Part shown: positions 241 through 48,805 of the stretch, in pieces
How the letters are laid out: the number at the start of each line of letters is the position of its first letter
Position numbering within the stretch: the stretch's first letter is position 1
Assembly: GCA_024137785.1 (NCBI GenBank)
Contig: JAHRHZ010000042.1
Span: 25,401,556-25,465,555, forward strand
DNA: 64,000 bases
From: Ginglymostoma cirratum
Taxonomy: Eukaryota
Direction: 5' to 3'
Notes under the pieces: generated by a model
Told to the model about the DNA's origin: nothing
What the model saw: the letters and a program-made list of their open reading frames with translations, nothing else
Database searches by the model: none
Translations under genes and position numbers: made by a program

Positions 241-1496
241 CATGTTAAATACATGAGCATATATGAGAATAAGCATGTTTTAGATCATTATTTCAAGCGC
301 TAAAAACCCACAATTCTCTGAAAGAGTTATTGAGGCTTCTGTATTTTCAATGCAAGTTTACAATTCAGGCATCTTTATGATGCTTTGAAGGTAAATGGAT
401 TGAAACTGATAAAGTCCATGAGCCTGCTCACTTACTCAAACATTATTTACATTTGTGGAATAGTTAAGTAGATGACGCCTTGTATCTTTGTTGTTTACTG
501 CTCTTCTTTTTGTCTGCCCATGAATGCTTTAAGTTCACCTAATGCTCCAGCATCGTGAATCACTTGGGTTTTCACTATATTTTAATGTTCAATTCTACAA
601 AGAATGGGAAAATAAGAAAATAACATCTCAGCACTGACTGTTTAAATTAAAATATTTAAAATTATGCAGCCAGGAAAATAGTTCATTTCATTTTTCTGTG
701 ATTTGCTGGAGGTTGTCAAGATTCATTTTCAAATTCACTGCCTAGTATGAGAATTTCTTTTGTAGTGTTTTTTTTTCCCCTTTGCATTATTTCATTTTTG
801 CTTGGAAGCAGCTTCCCAGAGAGTTATTTCTTTTTCGGGCTTGGGAAGTCGAAATTTAAATTTGAATATAATAATGCTTGAAGCACTGGGGTTATAAACA
901 TATTCATCCTTCTTTCATATCCCACCGTAACCTGCTAATTGCCCCACCAAATCCACAGAGCTCATTAGCATTCTGTGCCTGCATCTTCTAAAGGACTGAA
1001 GAGGGAAAATAAGAAGTATTCATTATATTTGGATTTATCTTTAAAAGGGGCGTTGAAACCAGATGAACCAAAGAGTTGGTATGTTGTCCTTAGCTCCTAA
1101 ATATGCTCACTGTAATTAATCTTGGCATAATGCACAGAGACCTTAATTCTGACTTTAACCTGTGTTTATATTTAAGTTGGGACTATGTACATGTTGTGTT
1201 AATGCGACAATGTGAAGCAAGGACCCCACATTTGTGTTGCAAACATTTCACCGTGAAACAACAGAAAAGCAAGAGATACTGTTAGCAATGTTCTAAATTT
1301 CAATTATCGTGTCAAATCGTTTGTATTCAGTTTTGTGTGCATTCCTCTCCCTGCAACTTGAGAAACATAACCTTTTAATCCCACTGGAACCATACTGAGA
1401 GTGAAGCTGCTGACTGGGTTTCACTCATTAATTACTTAACTGCTAATCATAAAGGGGCATCAGGTGGTACTGGGAGGGTATGAGTTACGTAATTCA

Positions 1497-1610
1497 GTCG
1501 TGGGTTCTGAGTAGTACTGTCGCTACCTCTCAGCCAGTAGATCCAAGTTCAAGTCCCAGCTGCTCCTGATGTGTCGTGACTGGTCTGAACAGATTGATTA
1601 AAAATATTGT
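1497..1610 (+). mobile_element. About 110-bp tRNA-derived SINE monomer
   Basis: B-box-like AGTTCAAGTCC followed by ctgctcc..tgtgtc.tgac..ctgaacagattgattaaaaatat, shared with copies at 26960-27630. Confidence 0.6.
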
Positions 1611-1659
1611 TAATGATTTAGTAGATAATGCGCACCGAGAGAATTGTGACTCACTAAGT

Positions 1660-2310
1660 AGAGGCTCTTGAGCAGCAGTGGTTGTGTCCCTATCCTTAGG
1701 AAATGAGGCCCACGTAGAAGTCCCGCCTACTCCAGAGATGCTTAATAACATCTCAGAACATTTTATTAAGCTGGAGAGGGTTGAGAAGAGATTTACCAGA
1801 AGGTTGCCGAGAATGGAGGGTTTGAGTTTTAAGGAGAGGTTGGATAGGCTGGGACTTTTTTCTGTGGAGTGTAGGACGTTGAGAGGTGACCTTGCAGAGG
1901 TTTACAAAATCATGTGGGGTAGAGATAAGGTGAATGGCATGTGTCTTTTCCTTAATGTGTTGGATTTAAAGACTAGGGGGCATATTTTAAGGCGAGAGGA
2001 GAAAGATTTAAAAGAGACATCAGGGACATTTTTTTACACAGATCGTGGTTCATGTCGGGAATAAACTTCCAGAGGAAGTGGTGGATGTAGGTACTGTTAC
2101 AATATTTAAAAGACATTTAGATAAATGAAAGAAATCATTTCAGCCATAAGTTCATCAATAAGAAATGTTTGGAGGGATATGGGCTAAGTGCAGGTAGATG
2201 GGGCTAGTTAAGTTTGGGATTATGATCGCCATGGACTGGTTGGATTGAAGGGTCTGTTTCCATGCTGTTTGACTCTATGATTCTATAACAGGCTGATTCA
2301 AAATATTTGC
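1660..2310 (+). mobile_element. Second SINE monomer split by a CR1 insertion (1660-1760 plus 2287-2310)
   Basis: Monomer breaks at ...acatctcagaaca and resumes aacaggctgattcaaaatatt after the CR1 tail. Confidence 0.6.
1761..2286 (+). mobile_element. CR1 LINE 3' fragment
   Basis: KLERVEKRFTRRLPRMEGLSFKERLDRLGLFSVECRTLRGDLAEVYKIM (CR1 ORF2 C-terminus), ending in the gactctatgattcta tail. Confidence 0.93.
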
Positions 2311-2384
2311 AACTCAATTCACAAGAAACAACTGTCTTAGGTTCTATGCCACAGAAAGACATTTTAAAATAAAGTCACCGTTTT

Positions 2385-2492
2385 AAATCAACTTGTCCAT
2401 GTGAGTTATGACACATCTCTGGAGCAGGTGGGCTTAAAACAAAGCCTTCTGGCTCAGATGTAGGGACAATACTACTGCACAACATGAGCCCA
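2385..2492 (-). mobile_element. tRNA-derived SINE monomer (same family as 1497 and 26960)
   Basis: Reverse complement ggctcatgttgtgcagtagtattgtccctac...cacctgctccagagatgtgtcataac. Confidence 0.65.
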
Positions 2493-2521
2493 CACAAAGA
2501 AGTTTAGTTATGAGTTAATAT

Positions 2522-2533
2522 TGGAAACAGATC
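2522..2533 (+). promoter_or_regulatory. Degenerate primer-binding site (tRNA-Met-like)
   Basis: TGGAAACAGATC starts after a 1-nt spacer from the 5' LTR end; 9/12 match to TGGTAGCAGAGC, the tRNA-Met PBS of GalEa-type copia elements. Confidence 0.55.
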
Positions 2534-2579
2534 GGGGTTGCTTAATGGTGCAGGTTGGAAACTACGAAGTGAAACCACA

Positions 2580-4720
2580 AAGATGAAGTGGATACACAAA
2601 AAAACGAGGTAGATTTGGATAATCTATTAACACTCATGGACAACATTTCTAAATTAAAGATAACCTGTTAAATGCATTTGAGGTAGGGTAATACTTGGAT
2701 AAGTTTAGATAGCAGGATGGATATCCTACAGAAGAACATATAACAGAATTTAACAGACCACATACAAAATTGTAAAGATTTTCCTTGGAGATATCTAGTT
2801 TTGTGAATACCTTTAAATTATTGGACTGTGCCAAAGTACTAAACATGGATGGACTTCGAAGATTAAAAGGAGATACATTTTCAGAAAGAAACATGATTTT
2901 GGAACGGATAGCAGGAATCTTAAAACAAAATACCAGGCAGAAAATCATTCTTAGTAATGTTCATGGCTTAAATGAGACATAAAGCAGTAACTGAAAGAAT
3001 GGAGGATTCAGTGGAATAGAAGCCTCTCAGATATGGGCTGCACGCATTTGTATGAAGGGAGAATCATAACTAGAAAAAGGAATTTGATACACCCAAAAGG
3101 AACTAGCCATTATAGCAGAAAAATATATTTTGGGACATGGTCAACAGGTCTTCTTTATGTGACTCAGAATAATATTTACAACAGCATTGACAGAATAGAA
3201 AGGTTTTTGAAATTACTTGGAAAGTTTGGAAGGAGCAAATGATGACTCTTCTCAGGCAGAAGGAATTGCACTAATGACAAGAAACTTCAGCCAGTAATGT
3301 TTTAGTTACAGACTCATTTAATTTTGCAGTTTTGGGTGCATATCCAGAGTGTGGGGAGTAGGTTGATTAAGATGTTAACTGAATAAGAAAGACTGAAATA
3401 AGGTTATGGAGTTTGAGAATTCTATTGGCTTCCGCGCTTGGTGATGAAAAAACATTGAACTCACTCAAAAGAATGGACTTTGCCTGTGAAATAGCTGCGG
3501 TTAATTACTTTTTCAGCACAAATGTAGTGTTAAATGAAATAGCTGTATTGCTAGAGTAAGCACTCAATTGAAAAGTTCAAATGAATCTTGACATGGAACA
3601 TGGCAAACCAATTATTTATGGGAAGTCAGTGAATTTACGTTTTACACAATCTGGACATTATTGTATTCCATTAACAAGACCTAACTTCTCCCATCAAAAA
3701 ATTAAATGGGTATTATTGCACAAGAGATAGTGGTTTAAAGGAAAGAAAAGCTAATTACCTCAAACTACATCAGCAGTTTGCCCTTCCATCAATTTACAAA
3801 TTAAAAATCCTACTAAATGATGCTGAAATAAGGAATGATATTTCCACTAAATTAATAAAAGAGATCAGTGATAATTGTGATATCTGTTTTTAAAAGTGGC
3901 ATACATGATCTTGGCCCATAATGAGTCTCCCATTAGCTAGAGTTTTATATGATGTTGTGGAAATAATCTTTACGGTATGGGATAAATGAAAGAAACCATT
4001 TCAGCCAGCCCTTCATAGATATGGCAACTAGAATTAGAAAACAAACAATAACATAGAAAAAAGAGAACTGAGTAGTTATGGACAAGATAATGGAGAAATA
4101 GATAGATCCAGATGAATGGCACTGGTAAAAATCCTAATTCACAATGAGGGGAATTTGTCAATGCTGAAATTAGGGACAGGTGTGAAAAAATGAACTTTGG
4201 TAATGAACATGGTATTAGTAAGTCCCAATAGTGGTGGAGCCTGTGGAAAAAACGAATCTATTTAACAGATGAGATGCTTCATAAAATTTTACTGAAACAA
4301 CCAAGTTGTCAATTAACAATGACCCTGATATGTGCTGTCCAGGTGATGAACTCATTGAAAATTCTTGGGAATATGTCACCTCTTGTTTTGGGAGAAATCC
4401 AAAATTCTTTTGGTAGTAAGTGATCATTACAGCTTGAGAAAGGATTACAATTAGCTTGACACTTTCTGAAGACTTGGATGCCTGAAAAACAGGGACAAGG
4501 GCATTCAATAATTTTGAAGTTTCAGAAAGATTTTTCCAGGTTAACAGTACTGTATAAGGCCATCAAAACTAAGATGCAATACAAGGACCAGATATATTAC
4601 AAAAGACAAGGGATAAAAGATTGGAAAGATCTGGGTAAGGTTATCAGTAGTGACGGAAAAAAGCAGTAATTTTATGTGCAGTACATTAACAGTTGTGGTA
4701 CATTTCTCAAGGTTAATTGA
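2580..4720 (+). pseudogene. Frameshifted gag-protease-integrase relic of an LTR retrotransposon
   Basis: gag: LDKFR*QDGYPTEEHITEFNR..FKLLDCAKV; PR: LVTDSFNFAVL..LGDEKTLNSLKR..MNLDMEHGKPIIYGKSVNLRFTQSGHYCIPL; INT: KLHQQFALPS..CDIC, LPLARVLYDVV, FIDMATR, HNEGEFVN (DNGGEF), SPNSGGACGKN, GRNPK, YYKRQGIKDWKDLGKVISSDGK. Confidence 0.85.
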
Positions 4721-5554
4721 AACTAATTACACACTTACAGAATCTAAGCAAGTCATAGAGAGCAATGACAGACCATGCTTTTCACATTTATACATATTAG
4801 ACAATTATGAGGACCAGATATTTGGCAGATGTAGAGTTAGCTGACTATGAGAAAAGTGATACAAAAGATGGACGCCTTGTGGGTGAGGATTTATCAGAAC
4901 ATGAAGAAAAATAATTGTTAGAATCATTGTGCAAATATGTTATTTCTATTGTTTACTGAAAGAATAGCAATGCCTAATGTTGTATTATGATATGTAGAAT
5001 ATAAGAAAAAAAACATACTGTTTGTTTTCATTAGTTTCTATTCAAACATAGGTTACCAGTCTCTCAAGGTTTTATTGAAAGGGAAGCGGAATTTCAGTGC
5101 AACAAAAGTTAAGCTACAACTGGAATTAATTGATTAATTATGTGACTGCATAAGCATAAAGGGGGAACAGGTAGTACTGGGGATGTTATGAGCAGTGTGA
5201 CGATATAGTCAGTCCATGTCTTCCACAAGGAAAAGGTGTCTTGAATTCTAATTCAACAACAAGTTTAGTTTTGAATTAACACCTTCTCCATGTGACCACA
5301 GTGGAAACAACAATCTGCGTGTTCCAGTGGTAATGTTAATTAAGCTTCTCTTAATTAAACTTCTCATTTCCTAAAATTACCAGCTTTACACTTATTGCAC
5401 AGTCCTGCGTAATGTAGCCCTGTCTTCCACAACATTACTGTGATATAACCTTCTGTGTCTCACAGCACTTCAGCTTTTTCAAATAATCGCTCTCTTTGAC
5501 CAAGAGATAATTGTTCAATCTGTCTTGTCAAACAACACTGTTATTAGAGATAAA

Positions 5555-5680
5555 CAAAATACTGTGGATGCTGGAAATCTGAAATAAGAACAAAGTGCTG
5601 GAGAAACAGCAGATCTGACAGCATCTGTGGAAAGCGAAACAGAATAAATGTTTCAAGTCTGATATAACTTTTTCTTCAGA
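5555..5680 (-). mobile_element. Penelope-derived short element (old)
   Basis: ggatgctggaaatctgaaat..tgctggagaaac.gcag.tctgacagcatctgtgg; degenerate CTGAAGA...GAAAC on the minus strand. Confidence 0.65.
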
Positions 5681-7914: not shown

Positions 7915-8030
7915 TAGGCCCAAAATGTTAACTCTGTTTTCTCTCCACAGAAGCTGCCGTATCTGTTGAGTTTCTCCAGCAATTTCTGCTTTGTCTCAGA
8001 TTTCCAGCATCCACATGGATTTGCTTCATC
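7915..8030 (+). mobile_element. Penelope-derived short element tail
   Basis: cccaaaatgttaactctgttttctctccacagaagctgcc..tgagtttctccagc..ttccagcatcc. Confidence 0.7.
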
Positions 8031-20670: not shown

Positions 20671-21530
20671 GTCACAGACTCAGAGCCTATGGCACGGAAA
20701 CCGACCGTTCAGTCCAACTTGTCCATGCAGACCAGATATGCTAAACTAATCTAAATTCATTTGCCGGCATTTGGCCCATATCCCTCTTAATTTCCTATTC
20801 ATAAACCCATCCAGGTGCCTTTTAAATGTTGTAATTGTACCAGCCTCCACCACTTCCTCTGGCAGCTTGTTCCACACACGCACCACCGTCTGCATAAAAA
20901 ATTACCCCTTAGGTCCTGTTTAAATTTTTCCCCTCTCATCTTAAACCTATGTCATCTGGTTTTGAACTCCCCTACTCTAGGGAAAAGAACTTGGCTATTG
21001 GGCCTTTCCATGCCCCTCATGATTTATAAACCTCTAAAAGGTCAATCCTCAGCCTCTGATACTCCAGGGAAAGTGTCCCCAGCCTATTCAGCCTCTCTTT
21101 ATGGCTCAAAACCCCCAACCCTGGCAACATCCTTATAAATCTTTTCTGAACCATTTTGAGTTTAGCAACATTCATTCTATAACAGGGAGACCAGAACTGA
21201 ACACAGTATTCCAAAGGTAGCCTAACCAATGTCCTGTACAGCTTCAACATGAAATCTCGACTTCTATACTCAATGTACTGACCGATAAACGCAAGCTTTC
21301 CAAACACTTCTTCACTATCCTGTCTACCTGGGACTCCACTTTCAAGGAACCATGAACCTGCACTCCAAGGTCTCCCCAGGACCTTACCATTAAGTGTATA
21401 AGTCCTGCCCTGACTTCCTTTTCCAAAACGCAGCACCTCACATCTATCTAAACTAAACTCCACCTGCCACTCCTCGGCCCATTGGCCCATCTGGTCAAGG
21501 CCGCGTTGTACCCTGAGGTAACCTTCTTTG
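20671..21530 (-). mobile_element. CR1 LINE 3' fragment
   Basis: ORF 21017-21490: WAEEWQVEFSLDRCEVLRFG..LYRTLVRLPLEYCVQFWSP..LLEVYK; CR1 3' UTR follows. Confidence 0.95.
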
Positions 21531-24237
21531 CAGTGCTGAAGTTGAAGATTTTGCTTCCACTGAGCTAAAGTAAAGCTCTGACCTAAATGTATTCATGGAT
21601 TAAGGTAATCAAAATATAGCATTTTAAAAGGTCGTAGTGTCTGGTTCACCCAGTTCATGTCGCCCTCATTCATGAAGCACAAGTCTATCTCATGTGTGAT
21701 CTAACTTTTCAAGGAACCTATGGGTGCAGTACTGCTTGGTCTAATTGTTGACATTGACGTAAAAGACTGCATGATATTATTTCAAATACTTTTCAATGCT
21801 GTTCCTATGCCTTGGACAAGAATAATTCCTTAAACAGATTACGAAACAGATTCACTCATCCTTTGTCTCATTGTCACTGAAAAGTTTTTGTTATGTGAAA
21901 AATATTGATTGCATTTGCTGACCCAACAATCACAACTGAACCCCAGTGGTGAGAAGACTATTGCAAGACATTCTAAGTTACATAAATAGACACAATGAAA
22001 TAGCAACGCTTAATTATTTTTAAAGTTGGGATTCTGCACTCTTCCTCTTTGCTGTTTTAAGCCATGAGAATTGAAAATTACATCATGTTGTTAAAGCCAG
22101 AACGAATGCAACATTATCTTTGGTTAACCTGATTTATCTCGGTGGCATTCCAATAACAGGGGTTTTCGAATCACTCTGTTTTGTCTGCGCTTTCCATCTT
22201 CATAACTGTATTCTGCCAGCAGACATCGAATAAGGAGAAGGTATTTGAAAAAGATGAGAATACTTGCAGTTCCACTTGAATTTCTCCAAAGGCCATAAAA
22301 CATTTTTATTCAATGTGTTTAGCAAACAGGTTCTGGGAGATCAGAGCTGCAATACTGAATGCAGTAGTAATTTACGTGTAAGCAACTATTGGTGCAGTTT
22401 TCTACCTGAGGATGTGAAAAGGAGCACTCATTTCCCTATTAGCAGTAATGGTTTGAGCAGCGTCAGTCAGCTTTCGTTGAGAGTAAACTTAAATGAACAA
22501 AAGAAAATCCAGGGAGACCAGTGTGAATGTTGGAAAGAAATAACACAGGCGATATAGGGGATTCATCTTTACATTTCAGTGACGATGGGTGATGTTTGCT
22601 AATATTCAAGAAATACCTTGGTTCTCAACACTCAAATTTTATGTTTGATAAATTAAAAAATGTGAGGACTCATACAGCTGATTAAGTTCATGAAATACCT
22701 TTTTATCACCACTAAATGGCAGCAGTGCACTAAATAAACAAATCAGGACAATAAGTTAACCTGGCAGCAGATGTTACAATTTCGACATTTGACGGGAGAC
22801 ACAATCTAATATAATGGTTAGAACTGAAAAGCCAATTGTCAGATGGGATACTTCAAATCTAAGAGAGAGGCTCTGCTGCTGCCAGGTTCACTTATTGTAT
22901 CAGTAGTGGAGTATTACAAAAGTGCTGTAATGGCAGCTGGGAGCACATATTGCATTGGCTTACTTGCATTTAACTTGGTTCTAATATAATTTCAATTTGG
23001 CAGTGTCAGGCACTTCACTTGGATTGGATATACTGGGATCAGAAAGTGTTACATTCACCAGTCAACTTGTTTCCATTACGTTGTTACACAGCACAGCGAT
23101 ACACAGAAACACGACCACATATCAGAACACAAGAGAATCCGAAGGGTACCCGGCCATACAGTTTTCTAAGTTTGTCCCTTTATGATAATACTGTACGATT
23201 AATCTTAGCATTGACTTCTTTCCTACTGTGTCATGGAAAAAAATGAAGCTGTAATTTGCTATCATAAGATGCACAAATTAACCAATGTCTGCAATTGCAA
23301 AGTGGCCCACAGCAGTTTTTCACATGGGAGTCCCTCCCTATTAAGGCTAATTGTCTACTAACTTGAGCAAAGCTAGACCAGAGATACTCCACTGGAGTAA
23401 AACATCAAAGGAGGTAACATTTTAGTGCGGAGGAAACGACTGAGAGGGTCTAGTTTAAGGTGTTAAAAGTCGGGTTGGTTGACTATTCACTGTGATATAC
23501 AGGAGGCATTTAGGGAGCATTACTTATCACAGCATGTACTTGTATCAATCAAATCTTAACTTGAAATTCTATCATTGCTGCTTGATTGGTCAAACCCCCC
23601 TCCTTCACTGGATTGTGGGTAGATGTGCACCACATGGACAGCAGAAGTTCAAGAAATGATCCCACCAGCTTTTAAATGGCAATTAAGATTGGACAGTACA
23701 TGCTGGTCTGGCCAGTGACACAGACATCTCATGTATGCATTTTTAATAATCTCATTACGATATTGTAACATTGCATCATGTGATGTTTCAATAAATTCTT
23801 TGCAGCTCATTTTTCCCCTGTATTTCCTGCTAAATTCAGGCACAGTCAAGTTATTACACAACTTCAATCAGCTTTTTGCACCTTGTTAAAGTGGGACTGG
23901 CTGACGGATGTAAATTGGTGGTTTCAACTGTGCTCTTTCCCACATGCCAGCCTGTAGAATAGAGTCGTGGGAGTAACACCAGAAACAAACATAACAATGA
24001 TGATAATAACACAATGATATCAGAGTAACACCTCATTCTATAAAGCTTACCGTTTTCCATGGTTTTTAAAAACAAAGCTACCAGCATAAAAGTGGAACTT
24101 CTCAGAAATTTGCTCATTGCTGGGAATTTACTCCGGTCGTTGGGAATGGTAGGTGGTGGGGGGAGGTTTGGTACACTCTGGGATAGCACAGAATTAAAAA
24201 CAGTAATTCAACCTTTGGACATCCACACATGTGTGGA

Positions 24238-30059: not shown

Positions 30060-32295
30060 CATGACATTTGATACAGTGCCATACAACAGAATTGTGAGGA
30101 AAGTTATAGGAATGAAAGAGCCAGAAGGAATAACATTGGCTGAGTGATAGGAAACAGAGAGTTATGGTCAATTAATATATTTTAGGCTGAAGGAAGGTTT
30201 GTAGTGGAATTCTCCAAGTATTGACAACTCCTGCTTTTCTTGATATTTATTTAAATGACCTAGATTTTTGAGTGCAGTGGGCAATTTTAAAGTTTGCAGA
30301 AGAATCTAAAATTTGGGAGAATCGCAAATTACGAGGTGGATAGTGTAGAACTGTAGAATGGCATAGACAAGTTGTTGGAGTGGGCAAACAGCAGGCAGAC
30401 AGGCTTCAATGGAAACGTGTGAGGTGATGCATTTTGGAAGGAAGAACGTTGAAAGACGATACAAAGTAGAGGATACAGGAAGAGAGAGACTTTGGTGGAC
30501 ATGTGCACAGGTCATTGAAAACAGCAGGACAGGTAGAGAGAACAGTAAGTAAAGTATACAGTGCCCTTGGCTGATGGTGGCATAGAGTTCAGGAGCATGG
30601 AGGTGATGTTGAACTTGTATAATACATTTATTAGACCTCTGCTGGAATATTGTGTACAGTTCTGGGCACTATATCATAGGAGGATGAGAATCCATTTGAA
30701 AGAGTGCATAAATGGTTTACAAAAATGGTTCCAGGGATAAAGAACTTCAACTGTAGAAATGTAGAAAATAGGAGCAGAAATAAGCTCTTCAGCCCTTTGA
30801 ATCTGCTATGCCCTGCTATTCAACATGATCATGGCTGATCATCCAATTCAGTACCCTCTGTTCCTGCTTTCTCCCCATAATGTTTGATCCCTTAAGACAA
30901 AGAACTATGACTAATTCCTTCTTGAAAACATTTAATCTCTTGGATATAACTGTTTTCTGTAACTCTCCGGGTGGAAAATATTCATTTCTGTCTTAAATGG
31001 TCCACCCTGTATCCTTAGAGTGTGATCTCTGTTTCTGGACTCTCCAGTCATCCGGACCAACCTTCCTGCATTTGCCCTGTCTTTACTGTTAGGAATTTGT
31101 AGGTTTCTATGAGATCCCCTCATTCTTCTTAACTCCAATGAACATATTCCTAACCAATCCAGTCTCACTTCATATGTCTGTCCTGCCATCCCAGGAACCA
31201 GTCTGGTAAATTTTGTTGCACTCCCTCTATAATCAGACCACCTTTCATCAGATGAGGAGACAAAAATTGTACACAATACTCTGGGTGTGGTCTCACCAAG
31301 GCCCTGTATAATCGCAGCAAGACATACCTGTTCTTGTACTCTAATCCTTTTGCTGTGATGTCAACTTGCCATTTCTTCATCACCTACTGCAGCAGTATGT
31401 TTAATTTCAGTGGCTGGTGTACAAGGACACCCAGGTCTCGTTTCACTTCCCCTTTCACAATCTATCGCCATTCAGATAATAATCTGCCTTCCTGCTTTTG
31501 CTACCAAAGTGGATAATCTCACATTTACCCACATTATACTTATCTGCTATGCATTTCCCCACAGTCTCTGTCTAAATCACACTGAAGCATCTCTACATTC
31601 TACTCACAGCGCTTCCACTCAGTTTTGTCTCATCTGCAAACTTAGAAATATTACATTTAGTTCCCTTGTCTACATCACCAAAACATATTGTGAATAACTG
31701 TAGTCCAAGCACCGATCCTTGCAGTACCCTAGTAGTTGCTACTTGGAAAGTGACCATTCATTTTTATTTTTTGTTTCCTGTCTGTTAACTCGTTCTCTAT
31801 TCATGTCAGTTCACTACCCAAATCCCATGCCCTTTAGTATTACATGCTAATCTCTTATGTACGTCTTTATCAAAAGCCTGAAGGAAAGTTGGGACTGTTC
31901 CCCTTGGAAAGAAGAAGGCTAAGAGGAGATCCAGTAAGAGGTTTTTAAAATTACGAGTTGTCTTGATAGAAGAGACATGGAGAAGTAGTTGCTGCTCATA
32001 AAAGCAACAAGACAGCATTGATCTAAAGTGTTCAACATAAGAATCAAGGGTGATGCAAGGATTTTTTTTAACTCAGTCAGTAGTTAGAATATAATACATT
32101 TTGTGGAGATATGGTGAACTCAGGTACAGCTGAGGCATTCAAGAGACCATTTGGTGATTATTTGGATAAATATAATGTGCAAGTGTTTGGGAAAAAAAGC
32201 AGGAGATTGCTACAAAGTAATGTCACTTATTTCACGAGCTGGTGCAAGCACAGTGACTTGAATGGCCTCCTCCAAGCTGTGACACTTCTGTGATG
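30060..32295 (+). mobile_element. Older CR1 LINE split by an antisense CR1 (30060-30752 plus 31880-32295)
   Basis: RT motifs ttaaatgacctagat..aagtttgcaga, ctggaatattgtgtacagttctgggcac; resumes aagttgggactgttcccc..aaggctaagaggagat. Confidence 0.8.
30753..31879 (-). mobile_element. CR1 LINE (different subfamily) nested in antisense
   Basis: ORF 31165-31383 KGLEYKNRYVLLRLYRALVRPHPEYCVQFLSPHL; tail tagaaaataggagcag. Confidence 0.9.
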
Positions 32296-47777: not shown

Positions 47778-48805
47778 AGATCTGTAGCTCGGGTTGTGAG
47801 TGTTGAGGTTGGTTGGCTCGCTGAGCTGGTTTGTTGTTCCGCAGACGTTTCATTACCATGTTTGGTAACATCTCAGTGCAGCCTCTGATGAAGAGTTGGT
47901 GTGTTTTCCCGCCTGGCTTTTAAACTCTGGGCTCCGTTGCGATGGATTGCCTCACTTCCGGGTTTCCTCCGTACCGGAATGTATATGGGGTCGAGTTCAA
48001 TGTGTTTATTAATAGCCTGCTTCGTAGAGTGCCATGCTTCCAGGAATTCTCGTGCTTGTCTCTGCCTAGCCTGTCCCAGGATCTTGGTGTTGTCCCAGTC
48101 GAAGCCGTGGTTCTCCTTGTCCATGTGGATGAGATGAGTGAGTATTGGTCGTGGTTTTTTTGTAGCCAATTGGTGTTCATGTACTCTTGTTGTTAGTTTC
48201 CTTCCTGTTTGTCCAATGTAGTTTTTTTTCGCAGTCTCTGCCGGGGATCTTGTAGATGACATTGGTCCTGTCCATGGCGGGGAGTGGGTCTTTAGTTTGG
48301 GGGAGCACTTGTCGTAGGGTTGACGTGGGTTTGTCTGCCACTCTGATGCCCAGCGGTCGTAGAAATCTTGTGGTGAGTTCTGACGTATTCCTGATGTAGG
48401 GTAGTGTAATGAGTTGTTTGGGGCCTGTAGAATCTTTCTGATGTTGTTCCTGTAGGCATCTCCTGACCCAGTTCTTTGGATATCCATTATCCTTGAACAC
48501 TTGGAAGAGATATTCTCCTCCTCTTGGCATAGTTCCGTGCTGCTGCAGTGTGTTGTTGCCCTTTTAAATAGTGTTCGCACGCAGCTTCGTTTGTGTGTGC
48601 TGCGATGGTTAATATTGAAGTTCAATACCTGGTCTGTGTGTGGGGCTTTTCGGTGTACTTTCGTTTGCAGTTCCCCATTTGTCTTGCGCTCTCCCATGAC
48701 GTCCAGGAATGGGAGTTGTTTGTTCTTCTCCTCCTCTCTGGTGAATCTTATTTCGTTGAGGGTGTTGTTTATGAGTTTGTGTGTCTCTCCTAACTTGGTC
48801 CGTTA
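47778..48805 (-). mobile_element. 5'-truncated Penelope/Poseidon-type retroelement (RT C-terminus, GIY-YIG endonuclease, pLTR)
   Basis: QLPFLDVM..TKVHRKAPHTDQVLNF..HKRSCVRTLFKRA; TNVIYKIPGRDC; NYIGQTGRKLTTRVHEH; REFLEAWHS; frameshifted. Confidence 0.95.
47840..47880 (-). ncRNA. Minimal hammerhead ribozyme in Penelope pLTR (core 1 nt short, probably inactive)
   Basis: Reverse complement TGCA-CTGAGA-T-GTTACCA-aaca-TGGTAAT-GAAAC-GTC-TGCG. Confidence 0.7.

Follow-up and report, generated by a model that had tools for sequence, protein, structure and literature searches.

The window analysed here is a stretch of 64,000 nucleotides from Ginglymostoma cirratum (contig JAHRHZ010000042.1, positions 25,401,556 to 25,465,555 of the forward strand). 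Near its start, positions 1385-5281 hold the dead remains of a Ty1/copia long terminal repeat (LTR) retrotransposon that lacks reverse transcriptase (RT) and RNase H. It likely inserted into this shark genome more than 100 million years (My) ago and likely belongs to the GalEa clade; we give this reading a probability of about 0.87. An earlier note, made from the letters of the window, had recognised a fossil GalEa-like element at 1280-5281. Its identification is supported, with corrected LTR limits and with a loss of RT that had gone unnoticed.

The coding motifs named in the earlier note are present in the order it gave, spread over the three plus-strand frames of 2520-4950 and interrupted by stops and frameshifts. 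After the protease motif SGHYCIPL follow the integrase zinc finger (KLHQQF at 3762 to CDIC at 3887), FIDMATR at ∼4012, HNEG/GEF at ∼4140-4156 across a frameshift, GRNP at ∼4390 and the C-terminal YYKR..WK..GKVI at ∼4595-4650. A translated search gave the same picture: in tblastn, full-length copia Gag-Pol proteins aligned colinearly with gag, protease and integrase over 2656-4660, the best match being P0177 (residues 84-788, E 1.9e-49), with P0158 (residues 88-763) at E 1.8e-36. These reference proteins were found by searching 1.84 billion proteins with the RT piece of a sister copy. RVT_2 was present in all eight protein relatives scanned, and rve preceded RVT_2 in all six full-length ones. 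As the window frames are too decayed, no retroelement family was detected in them with Pfam; the decayed pieces likewise gave no matches as queries in two word-index protein searches, and the ESM Atlas returned clusters with RVT_2 and rve that have no taxa attached. When the last 480 amino acids of 36 relatives (each at least 1250 amino acids long) were compared with the element, none matched, which indicates that RT and RNase H are missing from the window copy. Because each of the five aligned pieces carries 2-3 stops, the element at 1385-5281 cannot yield a working protein, and the copy likely has no function.

The two LTRs align with each other at a score of 88, against 24.5±3.4 for shuffled sequences (maximum 40). 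Their limits differ in part from those first proposed: the right end at 5281 stands, and the left end moves from 1280 to 1385. A genome search with 4916-5281 returned 12 other matches, of which ten start at or after 5091 and five stop exactly at 5281, and alignment of other LTR copies places the start of the 3′ LTR directly behind a 15-nt purine tract, giving an LTR length of ∼190 bp. The TGTTA-headed segments that the note had counted as LTR, 1280-1384 and 4916-5091, score 23 against each other, a value equalled by 77 of 300 shuffles. Neither exceeds the shuffle maximum against any of four other LTR copies, and both were rejected as LTR starts. The 5′ LTR lies in three pieces, 1385-1500, 2309-2352 and 2497-2520, split by two nested insertions that the note had not mentioned.

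Features of the element in the window (window coordinates; strand relative to the window)
Feature	Position	Strand	Remarks
Candidate 5-bp target-site duplication, left	1380..1384	+	3/5 letters match 5282-5286
5′ LTR, piece 1	1385..1500	+	aligns with 3′ LTR positions 1-123; beats shuffle maximum against 3/4 other LTR copies
Nested insertion 1 in 5′ LTR	1501..2308	.	SINE-like repeats (~1502-1608, ~1660-1763, ~2287-2307) flanking a LINE 3′ end of very high copy number (1764-2286)
5′ LTR, piece 2	2309..2352	+	beats shuffle maximum against 4/4 other LTR copies; 39 against own 3′ LTR, below the shuffle maximum of 41
Nested insertion 2	2353..2496	-	SINE-like repeat, inverted relative to those of insertion 1
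5′ LTR, last piece	2497..2520	+	20/24 letters match 3′ LTR end
Decayed tRNA-Met primer-binding site	2522..2539	+	12/18 match host tRNA 3′ end
gag remnant	2580..3300	+	aligned part 2656-2928; outer limits by eye; stops and frameshifts
Protease remnant	3301..3718	+	aligned part 3440-3718; SGHYCIPL 3650-3673; active-site motif not legible
Integrase remnant	3711..4736	+	zinc finger (second His lost), DDE core with frameshifts and stops, C-terminal module
Start of acidic linker between integrase and RT	4737..4865	+	sister copies match up to 4862-4880
Internal deletion junction	4863..4884	+	RT and nearly all RNase H removed; seen in no other copy tested
End of pol (last codons) and 3′ untranslated region	4880..5076	+	resembles what follows RNase H in L091 and L059; contains the TGTTA at 4916 of the earlier note
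Polypurine tract	5077..5091	+	14/15 purines
3′ LTR, 190 bp	5092..5281	+	genomic LTR copies, LTR alignment
Candidate target-site duplication, right	5282..5286	+	pairs with 1380-1384, 3/5 letters

The LINE (long interspersed nuclear element) 3′ end within nested insertion 1, which we take to be CR1, reaches a genome depth of more than 150,000. LINE-like fragments that resemble it lie elsewhere on the minus strand of the window, at 21017-21592 and 30932-31360; they have no Pfam match and are presumably also CR1. A high-copy short repeat occupies 5552-5650, 270 bp past the 3′ LTR, and recurs in inverted orientation near 7941-8026. Further away, 47873-48802 (minus strand) contains a 309-amino-acid stop-free stretch with no Pfam match at E up to 0.05, which we assume to resemble a Penelope-type RT tail with a GIY-YIG endonuclease.

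The window copy belongs to a family in its host genome. A DNA search with 3570-4700, in which 40 of 228 candidates were scored, found at least 39 other loci that are spread over 31 contigs and are 66-81% identical to it, and the mean identity between the window copy and 20 of these loci is 67.6%. All searches pooled gave at least 86 loci on 56 contigs, including RT-only loci that are not tied by DNA to the family of the window. All copies seen are decayed. The RVT_2 profile (PF07727) had 17 genome matches, 16 of them above the cut-off, with a longest open frame of 240 amino acids; seven of the 17 loci have DNA in common with the internal region of the window copy. We read the domain order in 10-kb stretches around 20 integrase-selected and 17 RT-selected loci. 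RT/RNase H lay downstream of the integrase in 8/20 of the former, the integrase lay upstream of RT in 12/17 of the latter, and the reverse order was seen in none, so that the integrase precedes RT in every locus holding both domains, as the note had expected of relatives. Two sister RTs match RVT_2 (E 9e-10 and 1e-8) and have no RVT_1 (PF00078) match at E up to 10.

Some loci stood out in this survey. L153 has an LTR score of 53 and a gag score of 256, both scored without a shuffle control. L065, L116 and L117 are sister copies that have lost different internal stretches between gag and the end of the integrase. The 10-kb stretches of L111 and L112, which lie 84 kb apart (G000:C9), are 99.5% identical; each has an exact 18-nt primer site, an RT fragment ∼130 bp further on and an LTR end unlike that of the window family, and we read the pair as a second copia subfamily within a recent duplication or an assembly duplicate. 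Concerning the host itself, the shark type claimed in the earlier note agrees with a genome exon in which 75 of 83 residues are those of chain 4q97, a 'novel antigen receptor'; as this chain is from nurse shark, the host is likely a carpet shark. This IgNAR-type constant-domain exon lies at L166:1501-1749 (G000:C107) and is 90% identical to the chain; at least 150 C1-set genome matches were scored.

The tRNA-Met primer-binding site (PBS) was rightly positioned in the earlier note: 12 of its 18 letters complement the host tRNA-Met, and 40 of the 127,964 18-mers of the window score as high. ARAGORN called host tRNA-Met(CAT) genes at two of five loci; from their A1-U72 pair, we take them to be of the initiator type. 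At L100:1501-1884, a match to the tRNA-Met 3′ end lies two bases before a tRNA-Ala gene, with a tRNA-Ser nearby, and ARAGORN called no Met gene there. The exact 18-nt complement of the tRNA-Met 3′ end occurs five times in the genome, each time directly behind an LTR-like end. As a search with the exact 18-mer is biased towards a match, we used a pattern that fixes the first 11 letters only. This gave 24 matches, compared with three for the reversed control, and 11 of the 24 have a family LTR upstream. The column counts leave out the other 13, for which no family LTR was scored upstream (L147 narrowly; L132 and L133 have another LTR end). Across the 11 LTR-confirmed sites, agreement with the tRNA amounts to 58 of 77 cells for positions 12-18 and to 10 of 44 for positions 19-22; position 12 is G in eight copies, A in three and C in none. 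Among 11 loci picked independently of the pattern, seven have at least 14 of 18 matches behind the LTR end, all seven with G at position 12 (two overlap the pattern set). The primer site of the family is thus complementary to the host tRNA-Met over exactly 18 nt, which is new here.

Plus-strand synthesis that copies the primer tRNA would leave an 18-nt match, as established for retroviruses and Ty1, and to our knowledge one initiator tRNA sequence is common to vertebrates. Published metazoan GalEa elements, the teleost Zeco1 and Olco1 included, have C at position 12 (PMC5445492). Because letter 12 of the shark site follows the host tRNA, it reads as a probable host-dependent variant. The window copy weighs against a host-matched G at this position, as it keeps C in its decayed site.

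That the element is of GalEa type, as the earlier note proposed, is supported by motifs and by an unlabelled RT tree, in which no named GalEa references were included. We took the GalEa-defining motifs from PMC5445492, including its additional file 5. Among 32 long protein relatives, the gag CCHC is present in 31, D[ST][AGC]C in 25, [ST]RP[DE] in 30, ADxxTK in 28 and SDAS in 23; the canonical DSG[AC][ST]xH is present in none. The gag CX2CX4HX4C knuckle of these 31 relatives is not legible in the host copies, and both it and the D(49-54)D(35)E spacing of GalEa fall in parts of the window copy that are too decayed to read. In the host copies, exact RT motifs are KARL/KARI in 8/19, KARLVA in 2/19, D[IV]KAAF in 4/21 and [HY]VDD in 2/20, with more near matches; KARLVA, D[IV]KxA[FY] and [YH]VDD are not unique to GalEa. 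For RNase H, xRPD was found in 2/13 copies, SDAS exactly in 1/12, and ADxxTK in degenerate form only, in five copies. The RT tree included 14 of the 25 host fragments found in 41 loci, the 11 fragments under 95 amino acids being left out, and was rooted by outgroup, as the midpoint root had fallen inside the long host branches. The 14 fragments came out as a single clade both with 166 proteins (FastTree 0.84) and with 44 (ultrafast bootstrap, UFBoot, 92), sister to P0189 and P0192 (UFBoot 96) and inside a 41-tip group (UFBoot 95) that holds a Petrolisthes manimaculis protein. The tree supports one host lineage amid proteins that are GalEa-like, and does not amount to a formal placement.

The age of the insertion was approached through the LTR alignment that the earlier note had suggested for dating: 26.7% of 180 sites differ, a Kimura two-parameter distance of 0.331±0.052. 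Synonymous divergence (dS) of the whale shark from the zebra shark is 0.061-0.111 over about 50 My (PMC13100897), from which we took a shark synonymous clock of 0.6-1.1e-9 per site per year. With this clock, the insertion would be roughly 150-270 My old, or about 100-360 My with two standard errors. A pedigree mutation rate of 7e-10 per generation (PMC10587355) was not used, as it gives an impossible age. The locus is shared with a second organism, organism A, of which contigs from four studies cover it at ∼95% identity and bridge both flanks and the deletion junction; one contig spanning 2257-5578 has 161 differences in 3326 bases, and a second spans 967-1639. It follows that the element had inserted, had suffered its deletion and had received at least the inverted nested repeat before the two lineages split, and the LTR-LTR distance is ∼7 times that between the window and organism A.

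The missing region lies at ∼4865-4880 and measures about 1.7-1.8 kb, as sized from the protein relatives, so that a full-length element would have been ∼4.7 kb. In 10 of 24 loci, the likeness of sister linkers to the window copy stops at 4862-4880; in L059 and L091, likeness to the stretch behind RNase H starts at 4880-4883. When active, the family would have encoded a single Gag-Pol frame in the order gag, protease, integrase, RT, RNase H. Host initiator tRNA-Met would have primed the minus strand at the 18-nt site behind the 5′ LTR, the purine tract would have primed the plus strand, and the DDE integrase would have carried out integration. The internal deletion probably represents decay of one single copy and not the mark of an amplified non-autonomous subfamily. 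Such a subfamily, restricted to gag, protease and integrase and copied by a full-length partner, would be compatible with the LTRs, PBS and purine tract retained in the window copy, and neither RT nor RNase H was seen in 12 of the 20 integrase-selected loci within the 10 kb fetched, which weighs against decay of a single copy. However, the junction is spanned by none of the five other genomic matches to 4740-5010, three of which end at 4863; none of 24 aligned loci is clearly contiguous across both of its sides (L058 and L073 show weak run-ons); and other copies (L065, L111, L116 and L117) carry different deletions. We therefore consider membership in an amplified RT-less subfamily very improbable.

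Some points weigh against placing this old, dead copy in GalEa. The RT tree contained no named GalEa1 or Zeco1 and no branch-2 copia or gypsy outgroup; its proteins were chosen by likeness to the host RT, its decayed rows may attract each other, and the window copy, itself without RT, is tied to the RT clade only via DNA that six of the 14 host rows have in common with it. Neither the window copy nor any of eight host copies has a legible protease D[ST]xC motif. A 5-bp target-site duplication matches at three of five letters at the window copy and at 0-3 of 5 at nine other LTRs, several of which are not solo LTRs. The published GalEa PBS is given as 'strictly' TGGTAGCAGAGC, of which the family shares the first 11 of 12 letters and departs at position 12. 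As for the age, it is based on 180 sites and a synonymous clock, and repeats may change faster, which would lower it. A copia lineage of branch 1 that is sister to GalEa, or an undescribed clade beside it, would account for the differing position 12 in most copies and fit a tree that holds no named GalEa, and the labels in additional file 7 of PMC5445492 put CoDi clades next to GalEa. Against such a neighbour, the RT and RNase H motifs agree with the Zeco1/Olco1 set; the LTR length of ∼190 bp, the TGT..CA ends of intact copies and the probable length of ∼4.7 kb all fit metazoan GalEa; and GalEa is the sole clade reported in sharks (PMC11889832). We regard it as improbable, though less so than the RT-less subfamily.

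Confusion with a Gmr1-type gypsy element or a Ginger DNA transposon is the least likely of the alternatives and can practically be set aside. Ginger elements have a transposase that resembles an integrase, and they carry no LTRs, gag, protease or RT. In favour of such a confusion, RT is absent from the window copy itself, and Gmr1 likewise has its integrase before RT (PMC3587641). However, the order integrase-RT-RNase H together with an RVT_2-type RT in sister copies argues against both, in agreement with the earlier note; RVT_2 is also carried by all eight protein relatives scanned. The aligned LTRs, the PBS, gag and protease are also not expected of Ginger; Gmr1 and Ginger were set apart by description only.

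Few copia elements occur in vertebrates, where horizontal transfer is often invoked to explain how patchily they are spread. The survey of Klai et al. 2025 (PMC11889832), which required LTR pairs at least 80% alike, lists in supplement 3 seven GalEa clusters for Scyliorhinus canicula and three for Carcharodon carcharias, and it reports unclassified copies in the carpet sharks Stegostoma (one), Chiloscyllium (one) and Rhincodon (two) and none in Hemiscyllium. As GalEa in cartilaginous fish is thus already in print, the surprise is smaller and the gain modest: with the window copy, a clade that sharks were known to have gains one more old and dead member. New here are the other decayed copies, at least 39 in number, which surveys based on LTR pairs would overlook. 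Within the openly accessible literature, we found no report of GalEa in sharks besides PMC11889832 and none of a host-matched GalEa primer site. A decayed shark family of at least 40 loci shows that a group scored as absent by LTR-pair surveys can instead have died out long ago, and the 18-nt match of the primer site to the host tRNA provides a simple marker for the duration of GalEa replication in vertebrates. Tentatively, and with somewhat more doubt than confidence, we suggest that sharks have had their own GalEa lineage since at least the Mesozoic, that its primer site was remodelled on the initiator tRNA of vertebrates (18 nt, with G at position 12), and that the teleost Zeco1 and Olco1 kept the invertebrate-type site. 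If this is true, GalEa would have entered vertebrates separately in sharks and in teleosts, carpet sharks would be nearly free of copia because an old family, which LTR-pair surveys do not reveal, went extinct, and orthologous insertions could serve as deep phylogenetic markers.

Compared by description with the clusters that Klai et al. 2025 (PMC11889832) assigned to GalEa in sharks, the window copy would fall in the same reported clade, comes from the same host class, and differs in that its LTRs are 73% alike and split, whereas theirs are pairs at least 80% alike. The P0177, P0189, P0192 and P0158 Gag-Pol proteins, which include the best match of the window (P0177) and the sisters of the host RT clade (P0189 and P0192), are intact single frames, 22-54% identical to the element per aligned piece. 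Unlike GalEa as described, the shark copies are all decayed, the window copy lacks RT and RNase H, its target-site duplication and protease motif are not legible, and the PBS of the family has G at position 12 and pairs over 18 nt with the host tRNA, whereas the published site has C (PMC5445492). Like GalEa (GalEa1, CoRex1-2, Cico1, Zeco1 and Olco1; PMC3587641, PMC5445492), the family combines copia order with short LTRs of ∼190 bp, TGT..CA ends in intact copies, a tRNA-Met PBS right behind the LTR, the RT/RNase H motif set and a probable full length of ∼4.7 kb.

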